From positions 9,078-33,077 of the forward strand of contig JAAXIO010000050.1 in the NCBI GenBank assembly GCA_012270305.1: a stretch of 24,000 nucleotides of DNA. The letters run 5' to 3'. This DNA comes from Candidatus Saccharimonadota bacterium (GTDB lineage: Bacteria; Patescibacteriota; Saccharimonadia; Saccharimonadales; Saccharimonadaceae). Every line of letters begins with the position of its first letter. Within the stretch, counting starts at the first letter, position 1. The notes under the pieces were generated by a model, which had not been told where the DNA came from, ran no database searches, and was given only the letters and a program-made list of their open reading frames with translations. The translations under genes and the position numbers were made by a program. This document shows, in pieces, positions 1,451-20,220 of the stretch.

Positions 1451-2422
1451 TTAGTTAACTACGTTCTCTACTTTTATGCCAGGTCCCATTGTAGTGGTGA
1501 TAGCGGTAGATTTTACGTACCCACCTTTGAGAGTGCTAGGCTTTTGAGCTTGCAGGCTATCAAAGAATGCTTTGGCATTCTGGTGTAGCTTTTCGGCACC
1601 AAATGAAACCTTACCAATGCTTAGGTGTACAATAGCCTGCTTATCTACGCGGTATTCAACTTTACCAGCCTTAGCCTCTGTAACTGCCTTTGCTACATCG
1701 GTTGCAACCGTGCCACTCTTAGGGTTTGGCATTAAACCACGAGGGCCAAGCAAGCGTGCGTATTTACCAAGCTTAGGCATGTACTGCGGAGTAGCCACAA
1801 GAACATCAAAGTTCAACTCTTCTTTATCGAGCTGCTTAATGAACTCATCGTCACCTACAATATCAGCACCGGCTTTTTTAGCGGCTGCGTGGTCACCTTC
1901 GGGTGCAAACACAGCTACGCGAACAGTTTTACCAGAACCATTAGGTAGCACTACGGTAGAGCGAATGTTCTGGTCGGCTTGACGAGGGTCAACACCGAGG
2001 CGTACGTGGACTTCTACGCTCGCATCAAACTTAACAGGGTTAGTTTTTACAGCAAGATCAAGTGCTTCTGATAGCGGATATACTTTGCCAGCTTCTAGCT
2101 GTTCGGCTACCTTACGGTAGTTTTTACCGCGGCGCTCTAGCTTTGAGCGAACCTTGGGAGCAGGACCCTTTTTTCGCACTTCTTCTGTTCCGTCAAGTGG
2201 TGTAGTGTCGCCTGCTTCTTTGCGAGCTTCTTTTTCGGCCTTGGCTTCGGCTTCATCGATTGCTTTTTGACTTCGCTTGCCAGCTTTCGCTGGAGCAGCT
2301 TCTTTTACTTCGTGCTTCTCAGCTGTCGCAATCGCTTCTTCGATTTCAGCGATTGTATTCTTTTCTGAAACTTCTAGCTTCAGTTCTGCTGCTTTTTCGA
2401 GCAACTCGGCTTTCTTTGCCAT
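1451..2422 (-). CDS. rplA: 50S ribosomal protein L1 with a ~95-aa Lys/Glu/Ala-rich N-terminal extension
   Basis: The C-terminal ~225 aa carry L1 motifs (GKNYRKV.., VEVHVRLGVDPRQADQ, VLPNGSGK, GPRGLMPNPKSGTV). SD AAAGGA lies 9 nt upstream of ATG 2422. Confidence 0.9.
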   Translation of the reverse strand: MAKKAELLEKAAELKLEVSEKNTIAEIEEAIATAEKHEVKEAAPAKAGKRSQKAIDEAEAKAEKEARKEAGDTTPLDGTEEVRKKGPAPKVRSKLERRGKNYRKVAEQLEAGKVYPLSEALDLAVKTNPVKFDASVEVHVRLGVDPRQADQNIRSTVVLPNGSGKTVRVAVFAPEGDHAAAKKAGADIVGDDEFIKQLDKEELNFDVLVATPQYMPKLGKYARLLGPRGLMPNPKSGTVATDVAKAVTEAKAGKVEYRVDKQAIVHLSIGKVSFGAEKLHQNAKAFFDSLQAQKPSTLKGGYVKSTAITTTMGPGIKVENVVN

Positions 2423-2450
2423 AGGTAATAATCCTTTCTGTGGTACAAGC

Positions 2451-2480
2451 GGACGGAGTATATATACTCATTGTCCTCCC
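2451..2480 (-). promoter_or_regulatory. Structured element in the rplA 5' leader (candidate L1 autoregulatory site)
   Basis: Minus-strand RNA reads GGGAGGAC-aau-GAGUAUAUAUACUC-c-GUCC. A perfect 14-nt palindrome (2456-2469) is nested inside a GGAC/GUCC stem. Confidence 0.3.
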
Positions 2481-2501
2481 AGCATTGATAGTTGTGAGAT
2501 T

Positions 2502-2510
2502 ATTATAGCA
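2502..2510 (-). promoter_or_regulatory. Extended -10 box TGcTATAAT for rplA (leader of about 70 nt)
   Basis: Minus strand reads tttaTGcTATAATa. The same 14-mer TTTATGCTATAATA recurs at 13524-13537. Confidence 0.5.
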
Positions 2511-2541
2511 TAAACTCTCTACTGGAGCAATTTGAGACTGG

Positions 2542-3582
2542 CTAGTCTACTGCTTCAGCTCGTGAAGCGGCTATTGAACTTACTACCGATAAGCTTATGA
2601 TAATCAATCCGGCAACACCAGCAATAATTTCAGGAATATCGAAGAATATGCCAGTAAGTAACACCGTGGCTAATACACCGATTGTGTAGTGCGCTCCATG
2701 CTCTAAGTATCTATAGGCATGTAGTACCTTATGCTCTACCATAAAAATGGTCAGGCTTCGTACCCACAAGGCCCCTATCCCAAGTCCAATGGCAATGAGT
2801 ACTACGTCTTTTGTAACGGCAAATGCGCCGATGACGCCGTCAAAACTAAAACTGGCATCGAGTACTTCTAAGTATAGAAATGCCATAAAGCCTGCCATGC
2901 CAGTTTTCAACACCGCATCACCGGCTTTTTGCTCCTGTGACTTAGCGAATAACTCTGCGAGGCCATGTATTAGTACGTATGTGATAATACCAACCAGTCC
3001 TGCAATAAATGTTTCTTGCGGGTCATGATTGGCCGGCAATAGTGTAAGTACAACGAGAATCATTAGGCTTGTAGCTGTATATAGCCACCATCGGCTCATA
3101 TTCTGTAATGGTTTTTCAATAATGTTAATCCAATGAATTTTTCGTTTCGCATCAAAAAAGAAATGCAGACACAACATAAGAAGAAACATTCCACCAAATG
3201 CAGCGATTGATACGTGGGCTTCGTTTAGCTCCGCAGCGTATAAGTTTGGGTTGTTCAGTGCCAGATCGACAACCGCCCCCATCGGTAGCCCTGCGGTGAC
3301 GGCTACTATGACAATCGGGAATACGAGGCGCATACCAACGACAGCAATTAGTATGCCTATAGTAATAAAAATTTTTCGCCAGAACTCGCTTACACCAGAT
3401 AGTACTTTGGCATTAATAATAGCGTTTTCAAAGCTAAACGTGATTTCTACTAAAATAAGCACGGCGGCGACAAAAAGCGCTTCAGGCCCTAAGAAACCGC
3501 CAACACCCGCTAGGCTGAGAATGGTAATGAGTGCGCTAATGAAAAATATACGAACAGGATGTTTTTTTGGTGTTCTAGACAT
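2542..3582 (-). CDS. Polytopic integral membrane protein, DUF475/TerC-like
   Basis: 346 aa and very hydrophobic. It has paired motifs EITFSFENAIINAKVL and LDASFSFDGVIGAFAVT, which I recall as typical of DUF475. Confidence 0.6.
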   Translation of the reverse strand: MSRTPKKHPVRIFFISALITILSLAGVGGFLGPEALFVAAVLILVEITFSFENAIINAKVLSGVSEFWRKIFITIGILIAVVGMRLVFPIVIVAVTAGLPMGAVVDLALNNPNLYAAELNEAHVSIAAFGGMFLLMLCLHFFFDAKRKIHWINIIEKPLQNMSRWWLYTATSLMILVVLTLLPANHDPQETFIAGLVGIITYVLIHGLAELFAKSQEQKAGDAVLKTGMAGFMAFLYLEVLDASFSFDGVIGAFAVTKDVVLIAIGLGIGALWVRSLTIFMVEHKVLHAYRYLEHGAHYTIGVLATVLLTGIFFDIPEIIAGVAGLIIISLSVVSSIAASRAEAVD

Positions 3583-3591
3583 ATGGTAATA

Positions 3592-3597
3592 AGTATA
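3592..3597 (-). promoter_or_regulatory. -10 box TATACT, 9 nt upstream of ATG 3582
   Basis: Minus strand reads cagcTATACTtattaccatATG, with no SD. Confidence 0.35.
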
Positions 3598-3732
3598 GCT
3601 GATAACGTGTAGACTGCACTATAGCTGCTCTGTGTTGAATTTGGTACTTTAAGCAATTGTTGATGTAGCTGGCTAGGTATAGCCCAGCTCTCATTGACTG
3701 AAGTTGGTTTGGCCATACGTAGCCATGTGGTT

Positions 3733-3738
3733 TATACT
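3733..3738 (+). promoter_or_regulatory. -10 box TATACT, 8 nt upstream of ATG 3747
   Basis: The sequence is ggttTATACTagaaatacATG, with no SD. Confidence 0.3.
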
Positions 3739-3746
3739 AGAAATAC

Positions 3747-5945
3747 ATGCGTTCGTACAAACTAGTCGTAGTATCAAATCGACTACCCGTAAGTGTCTCA
3801 AAACGTGATGGCGAGTTGGTGTTTGAAGCTAGCTCAGGTGGCCTAGCTACAGCAATGTCATCACTTGATCAACCTGAAAGAATCTGGGTTGGCTGGCCTG
3901 GTATTGCCTCCGATGACTTAACCGCAGCGGACAAACGGCATATTACAACTGAATTAGCCAAACACGATTGCTATCCGGTCTATTTAACAAAAGAGCAGAT
4001 TGAGCTCTTTTATGAAGGCTACTCTAACGATACACTATGGCCACTGTTTCATTATTTTCAGTCACTCACTCGGCATAAAGACGAGTATTGGCAGGCCTAC
4101 GTATCTGTAAATAAATTATATAGCGCTGCGGTGCAGAAAGTTGCGTCGTCTACCAGTTCTGTTTGGGTGCATGATTACCAACTTATGCTTTTGCCAGGTA
4201 TGTTGAGAGCGGCAATCCCACAAAGCGCGATTGGATTCTTTCTGCATATACCCTTTCCGTCTTTTGAAATTTACCGTTTACTACCCCAGCGCAAAGAGCT
4301 GCTGGAAGGGTTGCTCGGTAGCGACTTAATTGGATTCCATATTTTTGACTATGCGAGGCATTTCCTATCAAGCACGCTTCGGTTGCTCGGAGTAAGTAAT
4401 CAACAGGGTATGTTGGAATATCAGGGGCGAACAATTAAAACCGACGCATACCCTATCGGTATAGACTACGAGAAATTCAAGCACACACTGAGCAACCCTG
4501 AGACAAAAGATGCAATGAGTTCTCTATCTCAGCATTATAAGGGAATGAAGCTGATTCTATCGGTTGACCGGCTAGATTATACAAAAGGAATTATAGAACG
4601 ACTTGATGCGTTCAAATGTTTTCTTGATACCTACCCTAAGTGGCGCGGTAAAGTAAAGCTTATTATGGTGGCGGTGCCATCGCGAACTGATGTTGGCACA
4701 TATCAGCAGCTGCGCGATCGTATTGAACAAGCCGTGAGTCGAATTAATGGGGAGTTTGGAACGGTAGACTGGACTCCAATTTCGTATCAATTTCAAAATC
4801 GCCCATTTGCTGAAGTTGTTGCGCTATATGCAAGCGCAGATGTTGCATTAGTTACTCCTATACGCGACGGTATGAACTTAGTAGCGAAAGAATACATTGC
4901 GTCGAAGCAAAACCGACCTGGCGTATTGCTACTCAGCGAAATGACTGGTGCTATTGATGAGCTACCGGAAGCACTGAGTATTAACCCGCATAACACAAGG
5001 TCTGTTGCTGAATCGATGAATGAGGCGCTTACAATGAATAAGCGCGAGCAGCAACGACGCATGAGAGATATGCAGCGCCGACTTAAATCATATACGGTGC
5101 AAACTTGGGGCCGTGAGTTCATGGGCGACCTTGAAGCAACGGCACATAGCCGCGGTAAACATTATCGTAAACACATGAAGGGCGAACACAGAAATGAGGT
5201 TCTAGATGCATATGCAAAAGCGACTTCTCGATTAATCATCCTTGATTACGACGGAACGCTAAAAGACTTTGTTGCAAGCCCGCGTGCGTTGTTAGCAAAG
5301 CCGTCATTAAAACTTCGTAGGCTTATTAAGAGGTTAGTAGATGATGAGCGCAATCATGTAGCAATCGTTAGTGGACGCCCTAAAAAAGCACTTGATAAAT
5401 GGTTTAAGGGCATCGATGTCACGCTCATTGCAGAACACGGCGCTTGGTCGAAATACGACGGCAGATGGTCGCGTGTTGAGAGTGGCTTTCCGTCGACTAA
5501 GAAAAAGCTAAAGCCTATTTTAGAAAAATATGTTTCTAGAACGGCCGGAGCCGAAATCGAAGAAAAAGACTACTCGTTAGTATGGCACTATCGTAACGTC
5601 ACGCCAGAGCTTGCCTACGTACGAGCCGGTGAATTAAAAAGAGAATTAATTCATGCAATTGACGACGATGAGATTGGTGTATATACCGGTGATAAGATTA
5701 TCGAGGTGAAACCAGTAGAAATAAGTAAAGGTGCCGCCGCAAGTGAGCTTGATGCAATTTACGAGCCAGACTTTACTCTGGTAGCTGGTGACGATTACAC
5801 TGATGAGGATATGTTTAGGGAGCTCGCACACCAAGCTGTTACTGTTAAGGTTGGACCGGGGCATACTCGTGCGCGGTATCGATTGAACACCGTTGCTGAG
5901 ATGAATCAGTTACTCGAAGAGTTATCGAGACAGAAGAATAATTAA
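3747..5945 (+). CDS. otsAB: Bifunctional trehalose-6-phosphate synthase (GT20, OtsA-like) fused to trehalose-6-phosphate phosphatase (HAD, OtsB-like)
   Basis: N-terminal motifs: VVSNRLP, GGLATAM, WVGWPG, FYEGYSNDTLWPLFHYF, VWVHDYQLMLLP, LHIPFPSFEIYRLLP, DLIGFH, LSVDRLDYTKGI, PIRDGMNLVAKEY. The C-terminal ~250 aa carry LDYDGTL, SGR and GDDxTDEDMF HAD motifs. Confidence 0.9.
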   Translation: MRSYKLVVVSNRLPVSVSKRDGELVFEASSGGLATAMSSLDQPERIWVGWPGIASDDLTAADKRHITTELAKHDCYPVYLTKEQIELFYEGYSNDTLWPLFHYFQSLTRHKDEYWQAYVSVNKLYSAAVQKVASSTSSVWVHDYQLMLLPGMLRAAIPQSAIGFFLHIPFPSFEIYRLLPQRKELLEGLLGSDLIGFHIFDYARHFLSSTLRLLGVSNQQGMLEYQGRTIKTDAYPIGIDYEKFKHTLSNPETKDAMSSLSQHYKGMKLILSVDRLDYTKGIIERLDAFKCFLDTYPKWRGKVKLIMVAVPSRTDVGTYQQLRDRIEQAVSRINGEFGTVDWTPISYQFQNRPFAEVVALYASADVALVTPIRDGMNLVAKEYIASKQNRPGVLLLSEMTGAIDELPEALSINPHNTRSVAESMNEALTMNKREQQRRMRDMQRRLKSYTVQTWGREFMGDLEATAHSRGKHYRKHMKGEHRNEVLDAYAKATSRLIILDYDGTLKDFVASPRALLAKPSLKLRRLIKRLVDDERNHVAIVSGRPKKALDKWFKGIDVTLIAEHGAWSKYDGRWSRVESGFPSTKKKLKPILEKYVSRTAGAEIEEKDYSLVWHYRNVTPELAYVRAGELKRELIHAIDDDEIGVYTGDKIIEVKPVEISKGAAASELDAIYEPDFTLVAGDDYTDEDMFRELAHQAVTVKVGPGHTRARYRLNTVAEMNQLLEELSRQKNN

Positions 5946-5960
5946 TTAGTTATGCATAAA

Positions 5961-5989
5961 AAACACCCGCTACGAATAGGCGGGTGTTT
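5961..5989. terminator. Bidirectional terminator between convergent otsAB and rplK
   Basis: AAACACCCGC-tacgaatag-GCGGGTGTTT is a 10-bp stem. An A-run sits upstream, giving a U-run for the minus-strand rplK transcript. Confidence 0.7.
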
Positions 5990-6010
5990 AATAGTGTAGT
6001 CAGCGAAAGT

Positions 6011-6436
6011 TTATTCAGTTACTTCTACGCCCATTGAGCGCGCTGTACCAGCAATAACTTTTACTGCGCCATCAAGGTCGATTGCATTGAGTTGGCCGCG
6101 CTTTGCTTCGGCAATTTCCTCAAGCTGTGCACGAGTGATTTTACCAACTTTTTCTGAGTGAGGCTTACCGCTGCCCTTTTGGATGCCAACTTTTTCACGA
6201 ATCATGTCATCTACTGGTTGACCAAGACTCTTCCAGGTAAATGAACGATCTTCAAATACCTTAACGTGTACAATTACATCTTTGCCCATTAGGTCTTTGG
6301 TTGCGTCGTTAAAAGGGTTGATGAAATCCATCATGTTAAGCCCCCACTGACCCAGAATTGAACCTACCGGAGGACCGGCGGTAGCACGACCAGCTGGAAT
6401 GCGTAATTTAAGATTACCAATTACTTTTTTTGCCAT
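6011..6436 (-). CDS. rplK: 50S ribosomal protein L11
   Basis: 141 aa with PAGRATAGPPVGSILGQWGLNMMDF and a typical L11 C-terminal domain. SD AAGGAA lies upstream. Confidence 0.95.
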   Translation of the reverse strand: MAKKVIGNLKLRIPAGRATAGPPVGSILGQWGLNMMDFINPFNDATKDLMGKDVIVHVKVFEDRSFTWKSLGQPVDDMIREKVGIQKGSGKPHSEKVGKITRAQLEEIAEAKRGQLNAIDLDGAVKVIAGTARSMGVEVTE

Positions 6437-6497
6437 ATATTTCCTTATAGAATTACTGCTAAATTGTTGAAGCTATTTCGCAGTGCGTAACTTTAAT

Positions 6498-6506
6498 ATT
6501 ATATCA
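6498..6506 (-). promoter_or_regulatory. Extended -10 box TGaTATAAT for rplK (leader of about 55 nt)
   Basis: Minus strand reads gttagTGaTATAATatt, directly after the stop of the small upstream ORF. Confidence 0.45.
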
Positions 6507-6782
6507 CTAACAGCTTCTGCTTGCAATGGTTCCCAAAGCTCGAGCTGCGTCTTCGCGCGAAATTTTGTTTGCTTCGAGCGCTTTAAGTATGTTTCGCTGC
6601 TCGTCGCTAAGTCCACTCCAGTGATCTGATGAGGTGCTCGCTTCGTGACTAGAGCTATAGCTTTTCTGCGCACTCATGCTCAATTGCTGGGCATTTGTTG
6701 CAGCTAAGTCTCCGTCATCCCATTCCGAATAGGTGTTGATCACCGCGTCGTACTCAGCGACTTGTTGGTAAGTTTCAGCCAT
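6507..6782 (-). CDS. Small acidic/Ser-rich hypothetical protein (91 aa) inserted between nusG and rplK
   Basis: Its ATG overlaps the nusG stop (TAATG), which indicates translational coupling. No recognisable family. Confidence 0.45.
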   Translation of the reverse strand: MAETYQQVAEYDAVINTYSEWDDGDLAATNAQQLSMSAQKSYSSSHEASTSSDHWSGLSDEQRNILKALEANKISREDAARALGTIASRSC

Positions 6783-7327
6783 TAAACTTTTTTCACCTGT
6801 AGGGCATCGAGCTCAACTGGCGTGTCGCGGCCGAACATACTTACCATAACGCGAATTTTGCCTTTTACTGCATCAATTTCAGCAATCGCGCCATCGAATC
6901 CCTTGAATGGACCGTCGGTAATAGAAACTACCTCACCTGCGGTAAAGTCAATGTGGTGTTTTGGATCCTCGACACCCATTCGTTTCTTAATTTTACTTAT
7001 TTCACTCTCAGATACCGGAGTTGGCTCAGTTCCACTGCCAACGAACCCTGTGACACCTGGTGTATTACGCACGATGTACCACGTTTCATCTGTGAGCTTC
7101 ATCTCTACGAGTACATAGCCTTGAAAGATCTTGCTTTCAACGACTTTTCGCTTACCATTCTTGATTTGAATCTGCTTCTCTTTAGGAACCATTACGTCAA
7201 AAATTTTGTCAGCCATGTCAACAGCGTTAATTCGCTGGCGGATGTCGTCGCCTACTTTTTCTTCGTAGCCACTGTAGGTATGTACTGCATACCATTGGCG
7301 AGTTGAGTCATATCGATTATTTGTCAT
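6782..7327 (-). CDS. nusG: Transcription termination/antitermination factor NusG
   Basis: 181 aa with WYAVHTYSGYE, the NGN domain, and a KOW region (GEVVSITDGPFKGFDGAIAEID). Confidence 0.95.
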   Translation of the reverse strand: MTNNRYDSTRQWYAVHTYSGYEEKVGDDIRQRINAVDMADKIFDVMVPKEKQIQIKNGKRKVVESKIFQGYVLVEMKLTDETWYIVRNTPGVTGFVGSGTEPTPVSESEISKIKKRMGVEDPKHHIDFTAGEVVSITDGPFKGFDGAIAEIDAVKGKIRVMVSMFGRDTPVELDALQVKKV

Positions 7328-7348
7328 TAGTTCTTACCTTTATTGTTC

Positions 7349-7684
7349 TTACTGTAAAATTTGCTCAAATAGTAGTTTAAAGCCTGCATCTAGTAGCGTA
7401 ATCAGTACTACGAAGAAAGTGGCAAATAGAAGCACTGCCCCAGTGAGGCTCCAGGTTGCTTTACGGGTTGGCCAGTGTACTTGGCGTAGTTCTCGCCATG
7501 ATCCCTTGAAGTAGCCACCGATCTTTCCGAGTATGCCCCACGATCGTTTCTTCTTTGTAACTTCGTTCGTCGTTTTCTTTGTTTTAACTGTACTTAGCTT
7601 TCGCTTTTTTGGCGTAGTGTTAGCCACGCTCTCATCACTAGCGGTGATGCGCGTCACTTTTGTGTTGCTTTGCTTTTTAGCCAC
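7349..7684 (-). CDS. secE: Preprotein translocase subunit SecE with a Lys-rich N-terminal tail; start reassigned to GTG 7684
   Basis: The C-terminus reads ELRQVHWPTRKATW followed by a single TM. GGGAG lies 9 nt upstream of GTG 7684. The track's TTG start at 7732 falls inside the promoter/hairpin region. Confidence 0.8.
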   Translation of the reverse strand: MAKKQSNTKVTRITASDESVANTTPKKRKLSTVKTKKTTNEVTKKKRSWGILGKIGGYFKGSWRELRQVHWPTRKATWSLTGAVLLFATFFVVLITLLDAGFKLLFEQILQ

Positions 7685-7707
7685 GCGGTAATTCTCCCAA
7701 TTTAAAT

Positions 7708-7727
7708 AGTCTGCTTGAAAGCAGACT
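7708..7727. repeat. Perfect 7-bp inverted repeat AGTCTGC-ttgaaa-GCAGACT in the secE leader / divergent promoter region
   Basis: Read directly from the sequence. It could be a leader hairpin or an operator. Confidence 0.3.
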
Positions 7728-7737
7728 GTCAATACGT

Positions 7738-10766: not shown

Positions 10767-11327
10767 CTAGCTTACAGTGATGTTGCCGCGGTGACGTGCA
10801 GGTACTACCCCTCGGCTTTCTGCTTTTGGTAGCGGGCGCCCATCACCTGATAACTTTTTCAATACAGTTTTTGCCTGAGTGGCAAATGTATGCTTTCCGC
10901 TAATCACTAAGGCCTGTTCTACGCCAGATGGTGCACTGAATCGCTTTACGTTATCTTCAAACTCTTCTTTTGTAGCAGATGTTTGTTTGCGCACGCGCCC
11001 CATGGCTGTATTAGTATCAGTCTGCACCCACACAAGGAGAACTTCGTAGCCTGCTTTTTTAACAAGCTGCGATAACTCAACTCTATCCGCTTTAGACCCA
11101 CTTGATTCTATAACAACGGTAGCTTTTGTTTTTAACACTTCTTTTAATACATGGTTTGTTATCGATTTAGAGGCTGATTCATCGTGAGCGAATGTAGCGA
11201 ACGCTGATTCATCAATAAATGGCGCCGAGAATGTATCGGCAAACTTTTCGGCAAAAAACGATTTACCACTCCCCTGTATACCTATCACCACGATGGCATG
11301 CGGTTTTTCTAACTGCAGTGATTTCAT
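10767..11327 (-). CDS. P-loop NTPase / small kinase-like ATP-binding protein (AAA_33-like)
   Basis: Walker A is VVIGIQGSGKSF near the N-terminus. At 186 aa the size fits nucleotide/polynucleotide-kinase-like folds. Confidence 0.6.
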   Translation of the reverse strand: MKSLQLEKPHAIVVIGIQGSGKSFFAEKFADTFSAPFIDESAFATFAHDESASKSITNHVLKEVLKTKATVVIESSGSKADRVELSQLVKKAGYEVLLVWVQTDTNTAMGRVRKQTSATKEEFEDNVKRFSAPSGVEQALVISGKHTFATQAKTVLKKLSGDGRPLPKAESRGVVPARHRGNITVS

Positions 11328-11363: not shown

Positions 11364-12113
11364 TTAGTAGTCGGAGTCGTTGCCAAGTTCGAGCAGTGTT
11401 TTTACTAACTCTTTTCGCCCTAAATGCGACGTGTCAATTTGATTATGTTGAGCAATTACATATCCTTGGATTAGTTGTTTGAGATAAATAGCATCTTTGC
11501 GCCAGAAATAATCAATTTCGTAGTGGTCTGTAGAATTCATAATGCGACTCGATATAGTTAAAGATCCAAAAATCGGCCCCGTACTGCAAGCCACGTTTAA
11601 TACGTCTTCAATCCGAATACTGATTACGCTTGATGTCCAGAAGAACGTACGTTTTGTGATAGTTACTTTTGTGCGGTCGATGGTAACTGAGTCTGGGAAT
11701 AGATTAATTGGCAAAATGACTGTTTGAGCACTAGCCAGCAACTGATGAGATTTGCGTACTAGTTTACGTAAACCTTCGCGCGGATCGAGTGTTTTCGCAT
11801 CGCGTTCACCTGCTTCGCGGTCGCTATCTTGTATGCGGGCTTTTTCTGCCCTTGATAGCACATCGTTGTCTGACACATCTTTTATAGCGATTTTACGCCG
11901 TGAACCCGAGTTTGCGGCGCGTCCGAACAGAATTTTGTCGGGGTGAAGTGCGCTTACGTCTTGTTTTAGAAACTCTTTGGTTACATCGTAGGTGCGTGTA
12001 GCTAGCCCACCCATTTTGCGGCTTTGTCGCATAAGCATTTCGTAAGGTGTTGCCTTTTTTGGGCCAAAGTCATCGGAGATTGTGCCTTGGGTCAGAGTTT
12101 TATCTTCTTCCAT
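11364..12113 (-). CDS. Hypothetical protein with a bacterial PH-like C-terminal region; start reassigned to ATG 12113
   Basis: A strong SD (GGAGG) lies 5 nt upstream of ATG 12113. The candidate -10 at 12138-12146 lies inside the track's longer ORF. The C-terminal segment VTIDRTKVTITKRTFFWTSSVISIRIEDV resembles bPH/YdbT-type domains. Confidence 0.5.
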   Translation of the reverse strand: MEEDKTLTQGTISDDFGPKKATPYEMLMRQSRKMGGLATRTYDVTKEFLKQDVSALHPDKILFGRAANSGSRRKIAIKDVSDNDVLSRAEKARIQDSDREAGERDAKTLDPREGLRKLVRKSHQLLASAQTVILPINLFPDSVTIDRTKVTITKRTFFWTSSVISIRIEDVLNVACSTGPIFGSLTISSRIMNSTDHYEIDYFWRKDAIYLKQLIQGYVIAQHNQIDTSHLGRKELVKTLLELGNDSDY

Positions 12114-12137
12114 ATGAGCCTCCGTATTTCTGTTTAC

Positions 12138-12146
12138 ATTGTAACA
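12138..12146 (-). promoter_or_regulatory. Extended -10 box TGtTACAAT for the 12113 gene
   Basis: Minus strand reads caTGtgTTACAAT, i.e. gTGtTACAATgtaaacag, followed by GGAGG and the ATG. Confidence 0.4.
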
Positions 12147-12215
12147 CATGTAGTGTCATGTACAACTAGCTTTCACCCGAGTATAGGTACCGATCCTGAA
12201 AAAATGCTGAAATAA

Positions 12216-12563
12216 TCAACTTTTTTTGATTGCTTGTTTTTTGTATAGGGTTTCGGATACAGTGCGACGGTCACGGCTATCGTGAATTGCATATACATCT
12301 ATTATGGTAAGAAATAAAATAAGGACTGTTATTGTGTAGGCGATCATTTCTTCGGCTGTTTTTGTTAAAAAGCTTTCGTTTTCAACGGTAATAGATACGA
12401 TGTTGTACCAAGTTGGGAAAAACTCAATCTTCTGAATGTGTCCGGCGTGTACGAGTAAATGAAATAACTCGTGTGCTACAAGACTCATCAATACTCCAAA
12501 AATTGTATACCAAATACGTATATCAATCAGATACTGAATAAACCTATGAGCATGCGCAACCAT
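12216..12563 (-). CDS. Small membrane protein with an HExxH motif (possible zincin-like, DUF3267-like)
   Basis: 115 aa with two or three hydrophobic segments and HELFHLLVH at the end of the first. Confidence 0.5.
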   Translation of the reverse strand: MVAHAHRFIQYLIDIRIWYTIFGVLMSLVAHELFHLLVHAGHIQKIEFFPTWYNIVSITVENESFLTKTAEEMIAYTITVLILFLTIIDVYAIHDSRDRRTVSETLYKKQAIKKS

Positions 12564-12569
12564 GAATGG

Positions 12570-12578
12570 ATAGTAACA
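12570..12578 (-). promoter_or_regulatory. Extended -10 box TGtTACTAT, 6 nt upstream of ATG 12563 (leaderless-type)
   Basis: Minus strand reads ttttTGtTACTATccattcATG. It overlaps the U-run of the upstream terminator. Confidence 0.35.
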
Positions 12579-12603
12579 AAAAAAGACTCACTGGGTAAGT
12601 CTT
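12576..12603 (-). terminator. Weak rho-independent terminator closing the ribozyme-containing transcript
   Basis: Minus strand reads AAGACU-uacccagug-AGUCUU-UUUUU, a 6-bp stem, 9-nt loop and U-run. Confidence 0.45.
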
Positions 12604-12665
12604 AATATCTCGATATGGCGGGGGCTCAAGGATGATTACCGAACCTGGTGTGGTGTAATATAGTT

Positions 12666-12720
12666 TTCGCTTTTCGTCCTTTCGGACTCATCAGCATGAA
12701 TACACATTCATGTAAGCGAA
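12666..12720 (-). ncRNA. Type III hammerhead self-cleaving ribozyme (complete core and three helices)
   Basis: Minus strand reads UUCGCUU-A|CAUGAAU-GUGU-AUUCAUG-CUGAUGA-GUCC-GAAA-GGAC-GAA-AAGCGAA. Stem III is 7 bp and open; the cleavage triplet UUA obeys NUH. Stem I is a 7-bp hairpin and stem II is 4 bp (G10.1-C11.1) with a GAAA loop. All invariant core nucleotides (C3-A9, G12-A14, A15.1-U16.1) are present. Confidence 0.88.
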
Positions 12721-12722
12721 TA

Positions 12723-12735
12723 TGACAAGCAGACA
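12723..12735. repeat. Left copy of a perfect 13-bp inverted repeat (TGACAAGCAGACA)
   Basis: It is the exact reverse complement of 13465-13477 and ends 2 nt from the hammerhead. Confidence 0.75.
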
Positions 12736-12823
12736 TGGAGTTAAGGAAAACATCACGGGGATCGTGAACCTAGGTTGTAACCCATATCCACTTGCCACAT
12801 TCGCCGTTCTGTACGAGACGACG

Positions 12824-13375
12824 TCAGTCGTCAGCCAGACCCACTTCGTTGGGGCCAGCACTGCGCGGCTGCGGTTCCCTCCGGTGCGGAGACTCACCGA
12901 TGAACGAGCTCTCGCTCTCCATCACGCCGCCCGGCTTGGTTATCTCGTCCTGACACAGCGCCACGATCCAGCGCAGCATGGTGCCAGCGATGGCCTCATC
13001 GAAGACTGCCTGAACACCGCTGAAAGCGACGATCAGTCCGTTCTCGATGACGGAGCCACCCCACTTGGTCATGCCGGGCCGGTAGAGGTGCGGAGCGTCC
13101 TGCTGAACCTTGCGGCTTGACAGTCCGGTCTCCCAGCTCACCTTCGCCTTCTCGACGGCGATGCGCTCATACTTCTCCTTGTCGGGGTGGTTCGGGTCGG
13201 CATCGGCGATGAAGATCATGTCGAACTCGCTACCCGGGTAGGTGTGCGGGAAGGCTACGACGATGGTGCCAGCGAACTTGTTGGTGACACCGTCCTCGTG
13301 AGCGGCATCAGCAGTGACGGAGACGATGTCCCACGCCTTCTTGCAGATCTTGGTGGTCAATCCGGTATAGGCCAT
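12824..13375 (-). CDS. GC-rich foreign-looking ORF (183 aa) with a possible GlcG/DUF336-like fold; start reassigned to ATG 13375
   Basis: SD AGGAAGAG lies 7 nt upstream of ATG 13375. The segments YERIAVEKAKVSWETGLSS and WGGSVIENGLIVAFSGVQAVFDEAIAG resemble the GlcG pattern (..KA.TA.. / GG.P...G..iGAiGVSG...De.iA). The C-terminal ~35 aa look disordered. Confidence 0.65.
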   Translation of the reverse strand: MAYTGLTTKICKKAWDIVSVTADAAHEDGVTNKFAGTIVVAFPHTYPGSEFDMIFIADADPNHPDKEKYERIAVEKAKVSWETGLSSRKVQQDAPHLYRPGMTKWGGSVIENGLIVAFSGVQAVFDEAIAGTMLRWIVALCQDEITKPGGVMESESSFIGESPHRREPQPRSAGPNEVGLADD

Positions 13376-13404
13376 GAGGCTACTCTTCCTAGTACTCAAC
13401 TGCA

Positions 13405-13457
13405 TAGCAGCGAGATGAAATGTTCCGCTTTGTGCCGAGCACTTAATCTCACTGCTA
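13405..13457 (-). promoter_or_regulatory. Stem-loop in the 5' leader of the GC-rich ORF
   Basis: UAGCAGUGAGAU pairs with AUCUCGCUGCUA over 12 contiguous pairs, one of them U.G. On the opposite strand that position would be an A.C mismatch. The stem encloses 29 nt containing the hairpin GUGC-ucg-GCAC. Confidence 0.4.
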
Positions 13458-13464
13458 ATTAGTT

Positions 13465-13477
13465 TGTCTGCTTGTCA
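13465..13477. repeat. Right copy of the perfect 13-bp inverted repeat (TGTCTGCTTGTCA)
   Basis: It is the exact reverse complement of 12723-12735. On the minus strand it reads uUGACAAGCAGACA, which contains TTGACA. Confidence 0.75.
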
Positions 13478-13524
13478 AAGTGCTTCGGAAACGAAGAATA
13501 CTCCCGCTTCAACGAAACAGGAGT

Positions 13525-13533
13525 ATTATAGCA
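13525..13533 (-). promoter_or_regulatory. Extended -10 box TGcTATAAT, 22 nt downstream of the tRNA-Trp 3' end
   Basis: Minus strand reads tttaTGcTATAATa. This is the same 14-mer as the rplA promoter. Confidence 0.45.
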
Positions 13534-13554
13534 TAAAATATGTAAATTGTCTAC

Positions 13555-13631
13555 TGGCAGGAGTGGAGGGACTCGAACCCCCGACACCCGGTTTTGGAGA
13601 CCGGTGCTCTAGCCACCTGAGCTACACTCCT
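13555..13631 (-). tRNA. tRNA-Trp (anticodon CCA), CCA-3' encoded
   Basis: Reverse complement: AGGAGTG-TA-GCTC-AGGTGGCTA-GAGC-A-CCGGT-CTCCAAA-ACCGG-GTGTC-GGGGG-TTCGAGT-CCCTC-CACTCCT-G-CCA. This folds as a cloverleaf with a TTCGAGT T-loop. Confidence 0.95.
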
Positions 13632-13668
13632 ATACTCGATTGATTGTACTAAATTACAGATGAAAAGG

Positions 13669-14622
13669 CTACTTATTTTGTTGAATACGAACAGCACGGC
13701 GGAATTTACGCTCTGTATCTGGGTCGGCGTAGCGAACAATTGGCTCTGCCGCAAGTAACCGATCTTTTTTGAGTAATTTCGCATTATCTTTCTCTAGGGT
13801 ACTCACAAAGTAGCGCTCAATTAGCCATTCCCTACCGGGTACAGTTTTTCCTTGCACGGTCATCATCCACAAATCATCCGACCACTGAATGGTATCTACA
13901 ATTCTCAGTTTGCCTGCGAGTGTCATAGGCCCTGTTGGTAATTTAGCAATCGATTGCCGAATGAGCTTTTCACCCAGCTCTTTATTATTTACGAGCACAT
14001 CGACAGCCATTGTTCGTACGCCATTTGGTGTTACCTGAACGGCATCGATTTTTTGATTATGTATCCAAATTATTTCACCACTCAGTGAGCGAAGTTTCGT
14101 GGAGCGAAGTGTCAATCGCTCCACCACCCCAGTAACATCAAGAAATGGCTCCACCTTAATATAATCACCTACCGTAAACCAGCGCTCAGCAATGATAGTT
14201 GCGCCCGCAGTGATGTCTCGAAGTAGTGGCCCCACGGTTTGTCCGGCAATTACAATAAATATTGCACTGGCACCAATCGCTGCCGCCCCACTACTTCTAA
14301 TTGCAGCGCTACCCTCGGGGCTCAAGATACGCCATGCTGCATATGCTACAACCGCTACTATCACTACGCGTACCGCAGCTACAATCACCCCTAGGTATGT
14401 TTCAACCTGTCTCAGTCGAACTGCTTTTATTGCGTCCGACTCATTATCTGAACGCACCGCTACCTTTTGAGCTATAAAGATAATAAATCGAGCTACATAC
14501 TTACTTAGCCAGTAGCTCACAGCAATGGCCCCGATAAGAATAAGTAATGATCGGTATGGGTTGGCCTGCGTAAAAATATCGCTCAGCTCACGGCTGAGCA
14601 TAGGAAGAAAGTCATTTGTCAT
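13669..14622 (-). CDS. Small-conductance mechanosensitive channel (MscS family)
   Basis: It has three N-terminal TMs, then GQTVGPLLRDITAGATIIAERWFTVGDYIKV..GVVERLTLRSTKLRS..G..IWIHN, the MscS pore/beta-domain signature. Confidence 0.85.
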   Translation of the reverse strand: MTNDFLPMLSRELSDIFTQANPYRSLLILIGAIAVSYWLSKYVARFIIFIAQKVAVRSDNESDAIKAVRLRQVETYLGVIVAAVRVVIVAVVAYAAWRILSPEGSAAIRSSGAAAIGASAIFIVIAGQTVGPLLRDITAGATIIAERWFTVGDYIKVEPFLDVTGVVERLTLRSTKLRSLSGEIIWIHNQKIDAVQVTPNGVRTMAVDVLVNNKELGEKLIRQSIAKLPTGPMTLAGKLRIVDTIQWSDDLWMMTVQGKTVPGREWLIERYFVSTLEKDNAKLLKKDRLLAAEPIVRYADPDTERKFRRAVRIQQNK

Positions 14623-14632
14623 CGTTCTTATT

Positions 14633-14638
14633 AGTATA
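14633..14638 (-). promoter_or_regulatory. -10 box TATACT, 10 nt upstream of ATG 14622
   Basis: Minus strand reads cagcTATACTaataagaacgATG. Confidence 0.3.
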
Positions 14639-14656
14639 GCTGGTGAAAATGGCCAA

Positions 14657-14680
14657 TTTCAAGATAGAAACCTCTTGAAA
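14657..14680. repeat. Perfect 8-bp inverted repeat TTTCAAGA-tagaaacc-TCTTGAAA between the divergent MscS and glucan-cluster genes
   Basis: Read directly from the sequence. It is an operator-like palindrome with no flanking U-run. Confidence 0.3.
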
Positions 14681-14764
14681 AAACCATAAGCGACTCGGTA
14701 TACTACAGGCAGACAAAACAAAAGGAGGCCGCTAGCGTCTGATAGAAGATGCTCGGAACGTCAA

Positions 14765-20104: not shown

Positions 20105-20113
20105 ATTATAGCA
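20105..20113 (-). promoter_or_regulatory. Extended -10 box TGcTATAAT for rpmG
   Basis: Minus strand reads aataTGcTATAATgataac, about 40 nt upstream of ATG 20063. Confidence 0.45.
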
Positions 20114-20144
20114 TATTCCTTACGAAAATGCTAGAAGGCGTGAA

Positions 20145-20220
20145 TGGAGCCATCGTCGGGGCTTGAACCCGAGACCTCATCCTTACCATGGATGCGCTCT
20201 ACCAGCTGAGCTACGACGGC
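20145..20220 (-). tRNA. tRNA-Thr (anticodon GGT), CCA encoded
   Basis: Reverse complement: GCCGTCG-TA-GCTC-AGCTGGTA-GAGC-G-CATCC-ATGGTAA-GGATG-AGGTC-TCGGG-TTCAAGC-CCCGA-CGATGGC-T-CCA. Confidence 0.93.

Follow-up and report, generated by a model that had tools for sequence, protein, structure and literature searches.

A GC-rich GlcG-like gene beside tRNA-Trp in a Saccharimonadaceae genome is probably the coding part of a widespread single-gene cassette with a 3' hammerhead ribozyme

We analysed a 24,000-nt stretch of the genome of a Candidatus Saccharimonadota bacterium (contig JAAXIO010000050.1, positions 9,078 to 33,077; this whole stretch is called the window), in which an initial annotation, made from the sequence alone, had pointed out an abrupt GC-rich island next to a tRNA-Trp gene and had proposed a horizontal acquisition, possibly from an actinobacterial host. 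We conclude that the island probably represents the coding segment of an expression cassette for one gene that is ancestral in Saccharimonadia and widespread there. Its transcript would be processed by a ribozyme, and its composition would be maintained. On the minus strand, the cassette consists of a native promoter, a structured 5' untranslated region (UTR) with a 5' box, an open reading frame (ORF) rich in G+C at third codon positions (GC3), a 3' box, a hammerhead ribozyme and, in this genome, a terminator (Table 1). The earlier reading overlooked the hammerhead ribozyme and the paired UTR boxes.

The compositional description of the island was accurate. The five 60-nt G+C counts made by hand were all exact (37, 37, 27, 20 and 30 of 60), and a 300-nt profile reached its maximum of 0.627 at 12901-13200, compared with 0.452 window-wide. 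The shift coincides, as had been stated, with the 183-aa ORF 13375-12824(-), whose coding sequence has a GC content of 0.618; the UTRs around it are indeed of native composition (0.455 for the 5'UTR, 0.462 for the 3'UTR plus ribozyme). Almost all of the excess lies at third codon positions (GC1/GC2/GC3 = 0.59/0.45/0.81). The deviation that had been read from single codons is borne out by GC3, which is 0.81 in this ORF (z = 10.3) and 0.417±0.038, with a maximum of 0.50, in 22 other window genes. The codon counts were also confirmed (Lys AAG 11/11, Ile ATC 11/12, Thr ACC 10/11, Asp GAC 9/12 and Phe TTC 7/7). We favoured the start codon at 13375 over that of the longer ORF at 13405, because homologues share the same M-x-x-G-L start. 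The tRNA-Trp gene reported directly upstream was recovered there by ARAGORN. Only three other GC3-rich ORFs were found in ∼129 kb of flanking sequence, none with a Pfam match, and GC islands were thus rejected as a common trait of these genomes. As a separate observation, the GC-rich coding sequence produces long antisense ORFs of 132 and 91 aa (window 12722-13120(+) and 13187-13462(+)), which are annotated instead of the real gene in three public close-strain assemblies (L061-L063). Gene callers choose these antisense ORFs, and the family is therefore under-annotated in public records.

We collected 54 loci encoding relatives of the 183-aa protein (individual loci are cited as L004 and the like), which form two groups by the GC content of their flanks: ∼30 loci from low-GC hosts (flanks 0.41-0.53) and 24 loci from high-GC hosts (flanks 0.62-0.72). 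Approximately 100 nt past the stop codon of the window gene, we observed a type III hammerhead ribozyme, which aligned with the Rfam model RF00008 over its full length (positions 1-54; 40.3 bits, E = 4.7e-7); the same model gave 41.0 bits in L004 and 29.2 in L003. The short stem II with its tetraloop and the UGUGUA loop 1 deviate from the RF00008 seed consensus. With a covariance model built from 10 copies, the window hammerhead scored 81.6 bits, and 18 ribozymes were detected in 17 loci, in low-GC hosts only, of which 17 lie just downstream of this gene.

The predicted structure has a stem III UUCGCUU/AAGCGAA, a stem I CAUGAA/UUCAUG with the loop UGUGUA, and the core CUGAUGA followed by stem II (GUCC-GAAA-GGAC) and GAA. 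The catalytic core is canonical (CUGAUGA ... GAA, with A15.1-U16.1 closing stem III), and the topology is that of type III, where stems I and II are capped by loops and stem III is open. Beside the core, the window has standard pairs at 1.1-2.1 (C-G) and 10.1-11.1 (G-C), the latter being replaced by U·U in L014 and L057. The cleavage triplet is U-U-A in the window, in agreement with the N-U-H rule, and UUC, CUC, UUU or GUC in relatives; cleavage is predicted after A12713, between 12713 and 12712. In an alignment of 10 loci, 95.3% of the cells were paired, compared with 34-44% in slid controls, and 12 of the 17 pairs showed compensatory changes; for example, stem II GUCC/GGAC is replaced by GCUC/GAGC in L050 and stem III by UUCACUU/AAGUGAA in L025. 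Most other ribozyme-bearing loci have an intact core and a NUH triplet, and decayed copies were seen in L008 (core CCGAUGA) and L017 (a truncated remnant). The predicted cleavage would take the terminator off the mRNA. Since only 5 of 13 ribozyme instances have a terminator behind them, we rejected it as a fixed part of the cassette.

The two boxes that flank the ORF are a 100% complementary inverted repeat of 13 bp. Their duplex has a calculated energy of −22.6 kcal/mol in the window, compared with −14.8±2.1 for shuffled sequences. The pairing is kept in 14 of 15 ribozyme-bearing loci (−19 to −25 kcal/mol, mostly 1.5-4 standard deviations better than shuffles), and across 10 loci 96.2% of the cells were paired against 28-49% in slid controls, with compensatory changes in 8 of the 13 pairs. 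Examples of such covariation are UGACAUGUAGACA/UGUCUACAUGUCA in L013 and UGAUAAGUAGAAAG/CUUUCUACUUAUCA in L014. The 3' box also has a predicted local partner. In the long 3'UTR hairpin (−47.6 kcal/mol), the 5' arm is an 'anti-box' at 12805-12778, and the 3' arm is made of the 3' box together with the 5' strand of stem III; as predicted, the hairpin leaves two unpaired nucleotides at the 3' end of the cleavage product. The anti-box pairing in the window and in several relatives uses many G·U wobbles (hairpins of −44 to −48 kcal/mol), and similar hairpins of other sequence were predicted in L003, L013, L009, L010, L056 and L059, of which L003 and L013 are distant. Folding of the whole 806-nt transcript gave z = −3.15, calculated from 20 shuffles only.

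An observation in its own right concerns L014 (JADKLW010001815.1, positions 1-1200), where two more GC-rich ORFs lie upstream of the GlcG-like gene with AT-rich spacers between them. The first, a partial ORF at 2-376, is unrelated to the GlcG-like family and is followed by its own 3' box (GTCTGCTTGTC) and a hammerhead at 500-554; the second, at 697-1140, encodes a 147-aa lipoprotein-like product. Neither had a Pfam match.

As the likeliest reading, we propose that the primary transcript self-cleaves after A12713 and would thereby lose the ribozyme and the terminator tail. The new 3' end, bearing a 2',3'-cyclic phosphate, would be held in a helix, formed either locally by the long hairpin of the 3'UTR or over 13 bp with the 5' box. 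The outcome would be a defined monocistronic mRNA that is independent of the downstream gene and probably withstands exonucleases, and in which the 5'UTR element probably gates ribosome access or translation. The composition would be kept by selection on the mRNA or on its translation, and would then not date from a recent import; an ancient exchange of the family with Actinomycetota, in either direction, is probable.

Table 1. Features of the cassette and its upstream neighbour (window coordinates)
Feature	Position	Strand	Basis or remark
tRNA-Trp (CCA)	13555..13631	-	ARAGORN; Rfam tRNA 64.7 bits; upstream neighbour outside the cassette
Sigma-70-type promoter TAGACA, 17-nt spacer, TATAAT, extended -10 TG	13525..13553	-	11/12 matches
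5' box UGACAAGCAGACA	13465..13477	-	5'UTR arm of the 13-bp long-range helix
'Type A' 5'UTR stem-loop, UUAGCAGUGAG ... CUCGCUGCUA around a variable hairpin	13405..13458	-	RNAalifold
Conserved single-stranded tract (..CAGUUGAGUAC..), then Shine-Dalgarno AGGAAG 9 nt before ATG	13385..13404	-	sequence; alignment columns
GC3-rich coding sequence, 183 aa, divergent GlcG/HbpS-like (DUF336 fold)	12824..13375	-	alignment, AlphaFold2, Foldseek, GC3
C-terminal tail, residues 159-183	12827..12901	-	alignment; pLDDT (predicted local distance difference test) ∼72, no predicted secondary structure
Long 3'UTR hairpin (predicted)	12715..12805	-	minimum free energy fold of the whole transcript and of the 3'UTR alone
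3' box UGUCUGCUUGUCA	12723..12735	-	complementary to the 5' box; 2 nt before the hammerhead
Type III hammerhead ribozyme	12666..12720	-	Rfam RF00008, own covariance model, covariation
Intrinsic terminator-like hairpin and T-tract	12573..12603	-	downstream of the ribozyme

The promoter of the cassette begins 2 nt past the encoded CCA end of tRNA-Trp, and transcription would start near 13518. Extended -10 promoters are likewise found upstream of the gene in L003, L004, L005, L009, L010, L012 and L013. The initial annotation had described a promoter box in common with rplA, and the 11-mer TATGCTATAAT does recur upstream of that gene at 2502-2512. A third exact copy of TATGCTATAAT was noticed at 20105-20115(-), ∼30 nt downstream of a tRNA-Thr gene (20148-20220, -). 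No sizeable minus-strand ORF follows this copy, which may therefore drive a small RNA or a small ORF.

In the 5'UTR, the type A element has an 11-bp stem, UUAGCAGYGAG/CUCGCUGCUAA, that encloses the variable hairpin and is followed by a conserved ..CAGUUGAGU.AC.. tract and then the Shine-Dalgarno sequence. RNAalifold predicted 20 pairs from nine loci, 10 of them with compensatory changes, and these loci include cassettes without a hammerhead. The element had no Rfam match at E<=10. At the same 5'UTR position, other relatives carry the Rfam motif RAGATH-10 (RF03147), which scored 52.6 bits in L004, 52.2 in L008, 49.0 in L015 and 57.5 in L057/L058 (gathering threshold 41.2). In each of these loci it lies directly before the start codon, with the Shine-Dalgarno sequence within its closing helix, and it is therefore part of the same cassette; thus, the motif is found at or above the gathering threshold in four cassette lineages. 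In the window, no RAGATH-10 match was obtained over 12500-13560 even at E<=10. We also noticed that in RAGATH-10-type cassettes an upstream ACAAGAUGAGAUUUU... is complementary to the RAGATH-10 5' strand AAAACCUCAUCUUGU (L004 5870-5994, and equivalent positions in L005, L008, L014, L015 and L057). In minimum free energy folds, the long ACAAGAUGAGAUUUU/AAAACCUCAUCUUGU hairpin competes with the outer stem of the Rfam consensus that holds the Shine-Dalgarno sequence, and in these models the leader looks like a three-part switch of anti-anti-Shine-Dalgarno, anti-Shine-Dalgarno and Shine-Dalgarno sequences.

The 183-aa protein fell below every Pfam and NCBIfam threshold, and PF03928 (HbpS-like/GlcG) gave no match even at E<=1. 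The weak resemblance to GlcG/DUF336 proteins that had been suggested is nevertheless real. PF03928 is matched by 10 of 50 family members at E<=0.01 (best E = 4.6e-8). The AlphaFold2 model of the window protein (mean pLDDT 92, predicted TM-score 0.82) retrieved only DUF336-type structures at Foldseek ranks 1-13 in the PDB, with probability 1.00 and TM up to 0.64; they include 2a2l, 4nkp, 6bws, 3fpv, 9jth, 5cx7 and 4clc, and the structures matched are Klebsiella ORFY, HbpS, EfgA, NahX, PduO-C and Ybr137w. A sequence-profile search of the PDB returned only a spurious match to Mediator Med6. From the PF03928 matches of the relatives and the fold of the model, we therefore regard the product as a divergent GlcG/HbpS-fold protein. 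Its G-G ... S-G-V ... D-E core resembles what we take to be the signature of the DUF336 family, and invariant residues of the subfamily include C11, K104, W105, G107, D126 and C141. The C-terminus had been described as out of context; the last ∼25 residues are in fact a variable tail of lower confidence, common only to the closest relatives, and homologues span about 86-88% of the query. A collection clustered at 90% identity contained ∼89 homologues, and an exhaustive search of cluster representatives gave 34 at E<=1e-30, 388 at E<=1e-10 and 787 at E<=1e-3.

We then compared the composition of the gene across the 54 loci. In the low-GC hosts, the gene was always richer in GC than its flanks (+0.06 to +0.19), down to ∼35% protein identity, and GC3 was mostly 0.65-0.93 (weakest in L001, 0.58, and L036, 0.48). 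In the high-GC hosts, the gene equalled its flanks (−0.05 to +0.03). The GC spike is thus not peculiar to this genome. The low-GC-host members with taxon names are all Saccharimonadia (Candidatus Saccharibacteria, Saccharimonadales, Saccharimonadaceae), and the named high-GC-host members are all Actinomycetota (several Demequina spp., Mycolicibacterium, Rhodococcus and 'Actinobacteria bacterium HGW-4'). In the Mycolicibacterium metagenome-assembled genome, the gene has native composition and shares 4 nt with the end of a short-chain dehydrogenase gene.

The codon usage of the window gene had been called actinobacterial in style, and this description holds. Its relative synonymous codon usage (RSCU) correlated with that of Mycolicibacterium genes (r = +0.81), of Demequina-type homologues (+0.72) and of other Saccharibacterial copies (+0.81), with r = −0.31 against the other window genes; for the pooled Saccharibacterial copies, r was 0.90-0.93 with the actinobacterial sets. 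GC3 remained high at every depth of divergence. The actinobacterial type of codon usage is a trait of the whole low-GC-host branch.

Such a bias could come from ordinary translational selection, if the gene were native and expressed at an extremely high level. The near-consensus promoter with its extended -10 would fit with it, as would the preference for NNC in Phe, Asn, His, Ile and Asp, the use of GCT/GGT besides GCC/GGC for Ala and Gly, and the mild NNC preference of rplA for Asn, Tyr and His. The NNC preference and the use of GCT/GGT also mean that the bias is not simply towards maximal GC. However, rplK, rplA, nusG and secE have GC3 values of only 0.35-0.46 (rplK 0.35, rplA 0.38), and their RSCU correlates with that of the cassette at r = 0.02. 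These four genes prefer GAA, AAA, CCA/CCT and GTA/GTT, whereas the cassette gene prefers GAG, AAG, CCG and GTC. The native, highly expressed genes are thus not rich in GC3 and use other codons, and ordinary translational selection therefore fails as an explanation; we rejected it on this comparison and regard it as quite unlikely.

In neighbour-joining trees, the window sequence formed a clade with L004, L005, L008, L009, L010 and L056, made up of low-GC-host sequences only (bootstrap 92), which sits in a larger low-GC-host clade (bootstrap 87). All seven sampled members of the window clade have the hammerhead, with a mutated core in L008. The high-GC-host sequences were monophyletic in 0 of 100 replicates and formed about three groups nested among low-GC-host branches. 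Between the window and L009 (72% aa identity), the synonymous divergence dS was 0.48, and 72% of four-fold sites were identical, compared with 36% expected from composition at saturation; on these sequence comparisons, synonymous sites are constrained in the low-GC-host branch. Window and L005 share 80% identity in the cassette protein, and the RplA of the window shares 81% with that of P0411; if the tentative link between P0411 and L005 holds, the cassette protein would have diverged about as much as RplA between the two genomes.

These results bear directly on the proposal that the gene is a recent acquisition from a high-GC actinobacterial host, inserted beside tRNA-Trp. Its codon usage, its position directly 3' of a tRNA gene and the presence of native-composition homologues in Actinomycetota (30-46% identity) speak for such an event. 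However, all of the nearest relatives (70-94% identity) come from low-GC hosts and share the UTR modules, the best actinobacterial match reaches only 46%, and the GC spike runs throughout the low-GC-host branch. The UTRs hold conserved Saccharibacterial RNA elements, and these RNA modules were absent from all high-GC-host (actinobacterial) loci examined. Islands targeted to tRNA genes deviate in composition, and so does this gene (GC3 z = 10.3; RSCU r = −0.31 against native genes); their closest homologues lie in the donor and are absent from the kin of the recipient, whereas here the closest homologues are Saccharibacterial. Most relatives of the gene lie away from tRNAs, only one other subclade follows a tRNA (tRNA-Asp), and no flanking att-like (attachment-site) direct repeats or target-site duplications were found around the cassette. 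The tRNA was therefore rejected as a general integration site, and the landing site favoured by the initial annotation does not hold for the family at large. That no integrase is present had been stated correctly; none of the Pfam-scanned window ORFs has an integrase, transposase or recombinase domain. Since the nearest homologues are genes of the candidate phyla radiation with similar composition (bootstrap 92 for the window clade), an outcome that the initial annotation had itself named as refuting, we consider a recent acquisition very unlikely.

The idea of host-to-epibiont transfer survives in part. A recent import is excluded, and an ancient exchange between the phyla, in either direction, is plausible from the sequences, because the named members are confined to Saccharimonadia and Actinomycetota and the codon usage is actinobacterial. 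We leave the direction of the ancient transfer undecided, because the high-GC-host sequences are not monophyletic and are nested among low-GC-host ones.

An assembly chimera or a contaminating high-GC fragment could also account for a composition that shifts abruptly at the edges of the ORF. An independent Logan contig (run SRR9182858) covers both junctions with 100% identity to window 13584-12150, and three further assemblies (98.5-99.8% identity) have the same order of MscS, tRNA-Trp, cassette and 115-aa gene. As independent assemblies thus span both ends of the island, the check on the junctions that had been called for argues against a chimera. Moreover, similar islands stand in the low-GC flanks of ∼30 unrelated contigs, and the UTRs are native in composition and signals. 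We regard the probability of an artefact as practically negligible.

Whether the cassette moves is a separate matter. It might be a mobile element, or belong to a pool, that moves within and between Saccharibacterial genomes, with its composition derived from that pool and the boxes or RNA ends involved in the movement. In support of this, the neighbourhood differs in nearly every genome, even between the window and L004 at 94% protein identity, where the similarity runs from the promoter to the end of the ribozyme, and the sequences of L056 and L059 part just upstream of the -35 box. The ORF lies between inverted repeats, a 3' box with a hammerhead accompanies an unrelated GC-rich ORF, and three GC-rich ORFs are clustered in L014. 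On the other hand, no transposase, integrase or reverse transcriptase was found nearby among the scanned ORFs, and there were no target-site duplications and no second cassette copy in the window. The promoter and ribozyme lie outside the inverted boxes, unlike in terminal inverted repeats. The site is stable among strains: presence in sister genomes had been proposed as a check, and the cassette was present in all strain-level relatives found, so presence/absence polymorphism among close strains was rejected; the L021/L030/L032 subclade is also syntenic. A phage origin was likewise rejected, since a scan of viral contigs with the exact ribozyme pattern and protein profiles gave no match. As we found no mobility genes, repeats, second copy or viral relatives, mobility is possible but unproven, and as an explanation of the island we regard it as rather unlikely.

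Four observations on the junctions and flanks are given for their own sake. Logan contigs end or start inside tRNA-Trp (L064 and L065 end at window 13582; L060 starts at 13584), which suggests an assembly-graph branch at the conserved tRNA-Trp, with co-occurring genomes that differ downstream. Over window 12000-14750 (115-aa gene, cassette, tRNA-Trp, MscS), the assembly L061, 98.5% identical overall, has 6 differences in ∼2.75 kb, and some of the neighbouring 250-bp bins on either side have 8-19; this mosaic pattern is consistent with recent recombination between strains. The downstream flank of L056 (..CCCCGGGGTCTGGGGTATCTGCAG..) holds the reverse complement of a segment of the L059 upstream flank (..AGATACCCCAGACCCC..), which could be a shared repeat or a cassette inverted relative to its flank. 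For the 261-aa neighbour protein, no record was found.

The RNA features also raise the possibility of a viroid-like or Obelisk-like circular RNA of ∼0.8 kb, with the locus as its DNA copy or template. The type III hammerhead, the ∼800-nt transcript, the 5'/3' helix and the folding z of −3.15 would be in keeping with this. However, the cassette has only one ribozyme, which is not at the 5' end, and many assemblies place the cassette, with its promoter and often a terminator, on the chromosome. Many Logan contigs with the gene are 920-1060 bp long, and the inspected ones enter unrelated flanking DNA and have no terminal overlap, which led us to reject a discrete ∼1 kb element or circular RNA; the protein, too, is an ordinary DUF336-fold protein. 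We consider this origin highly improbable.

A broader proposal is that Saccharibacteria keep a small set of genes, the GlcG-like family and others as in L014, in actinobacterial codons tuned to their host, as an undescribed class. We think this improbable. If it were true, the paired mRNA ends made by the ribozyme would exist because the RNA, the gene or the protein acts in, or is exchanged with, the actinobacterial host, and the native-composition copies in Demequina, Mycolicibacterium and Rhodococcus would be traces of epibiont-to-host transfer. A weaker version would be an RNA-defined mobile gene pool common to both phyla.

We return to the ancestral, ribozyme-processed cassette of maintained composition, against which several of our own observations weigh. 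The window hammerhead scores below the RF00008 gathering threshold (40.3 against 48.5 bits). Approximately half of the low-GC-host loci have no detectable hammerhead and keep a GC3 of 0.73-0.93, and the ribozyme therefore does not explain the composition. Shuffling of synonymous codons in the coding sequence revealed no consistent excess of structure (z from +0.7 to −3.7), so that a specific RNA structure of the coding sequence is unsupported as the cause of the high GC3. The low dS is partly expected under extreme codon bias and points to no selective agent. As predicted, the 3' box could pair either with the 5' box or with the local anti-box but not with both at once, and loss of the terminator hairpin could destabilise the mRNA rather than stabilise it. 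The taxonomic spread rests on the few members with taxon names, and the phylogeny is by neighbour-joining only, effectively unrooted and from a sample skewed to low-GC-host sequences. With these points taken into account, we still hold the cassette to be the probable explanation.

Some further observations concern other genes of the window. The secE-nusG-rplK-rplA cluster (1451-7732, -), as a rule contiguous, is broken here, with rplK (6011-6436) and rplA (1451-2422) separated by 3.6 kb; this interval holds a trehalose-6-phosphate synthase/phosphatase fusion (3747-5945, +) and a DUF475/TerC membrane protein (2542-3582), and tRNA-Trp is 5.8 kb from secE. RplA (1451-2422, -) has 323 aa, with the L1 domain at residues 126-314 only; its N-terminal extension of ∼125 aa appears to be conserved, because relatives of 322-359 aa share 78-92% identity with it. 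One entry under the name 'Patescibacteria group bacterium' shares 87% identity with this RplA. A 186-aa P-loop kinase (10767-11327, -) matches Zeta_toxin and AAA_33.

Taken together, what looked like a foreign island is recast as an RNA-protein module that is defined and widespread in a phylum of uncultivated, host-dependent bacteria. The setting of a single ribozyme and a single gene comes with testable predictions, namely the cleavage site, the sequestered 3' end and the 5'/3' helix. The gene family has named members only in Saccharimonadia and in Actinomycetota, the phylum of their known hosts, and its host-like codon usage is kept over deep divergence, as simple models of amelioration would not predict; this bears on gene flow between epibionts and hosts. 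New here are the taxonomic setting, the 5'/3' helix with the proposed sequestration of the 3' end, the 5'UTR motif that stands in place of RAGATH-10, and a host-like codon usage that persists.

Several known systems can be compared with this cassette. The protein has the fold of GlcG, HbpS, EfgA, PduO-C and NahX (DUF336, PF03928), and some members of its family match PF03928; the window subfamily has its own invariant Cys11, Cys141 and K-W-G-G motif. Like integrative elements and islands targeted to tRNAs, the segment deviates in composition and lies right after the 3' end of a tRNA gene, whereas here there is one gene, no integrase, and no att repeat of the tRNA 3' end was found. Ribozymes in mRNA UTRs include glmS in bacterial 5'UTRs and the discontinuous hammerhead in mammalian Clec2 3'UTRs, where cleavage lowers expression. 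In common with these, a self-cleaving RNA in a UTR would set the end and fate of the mRNA; here the conserved helices predicted around the new 3' end suggest definition or protection of that end. We know of no agreed function for bacterial hammerheads.

RAGATH stands for RNAs Associated with Genes Associated with Twister and Hammerhead ribozymes (Rfam RF03147). The name thus marks a known link to ribozyme-associated genes, and the literature that we searched had nothing on the function of RAGATH-10 beyond the Rfam entry. This orphan motif, carried by the cassettes of relatives, is now placed in the 5'UTR of a specific gene family, and the window copy has another covarying stem-loop at that position, which makes type A a second, unlisted 5'UTR motif.

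Bacterial hammerheads that flank single genes or short gene blocks occur mostly in prophages, near integrases and often with several ribozymes (PMC3088659), and the prophage hammerheads were proposed to process long transcripts (Perreault et al. 2011, PMC3088659). A literature search gave no paper that ties hammerheads to Saccharibacteria, Patescibacteria or DUF336. The present case is like those hammerheads in having a ribozyme beside an individual gene, a canonical core and, by predicted cleavage, a gene-length mRNA. It differs from them in that the cassette, which belongs to Saccharimonadia, is chromosomal, has its own promoter and one gene, and carries one type III ribozyme at its 3' end, in that covarying sequences pair with the predicted post-cleavage 3' end, and in the foreign-looking codons of its ORF.

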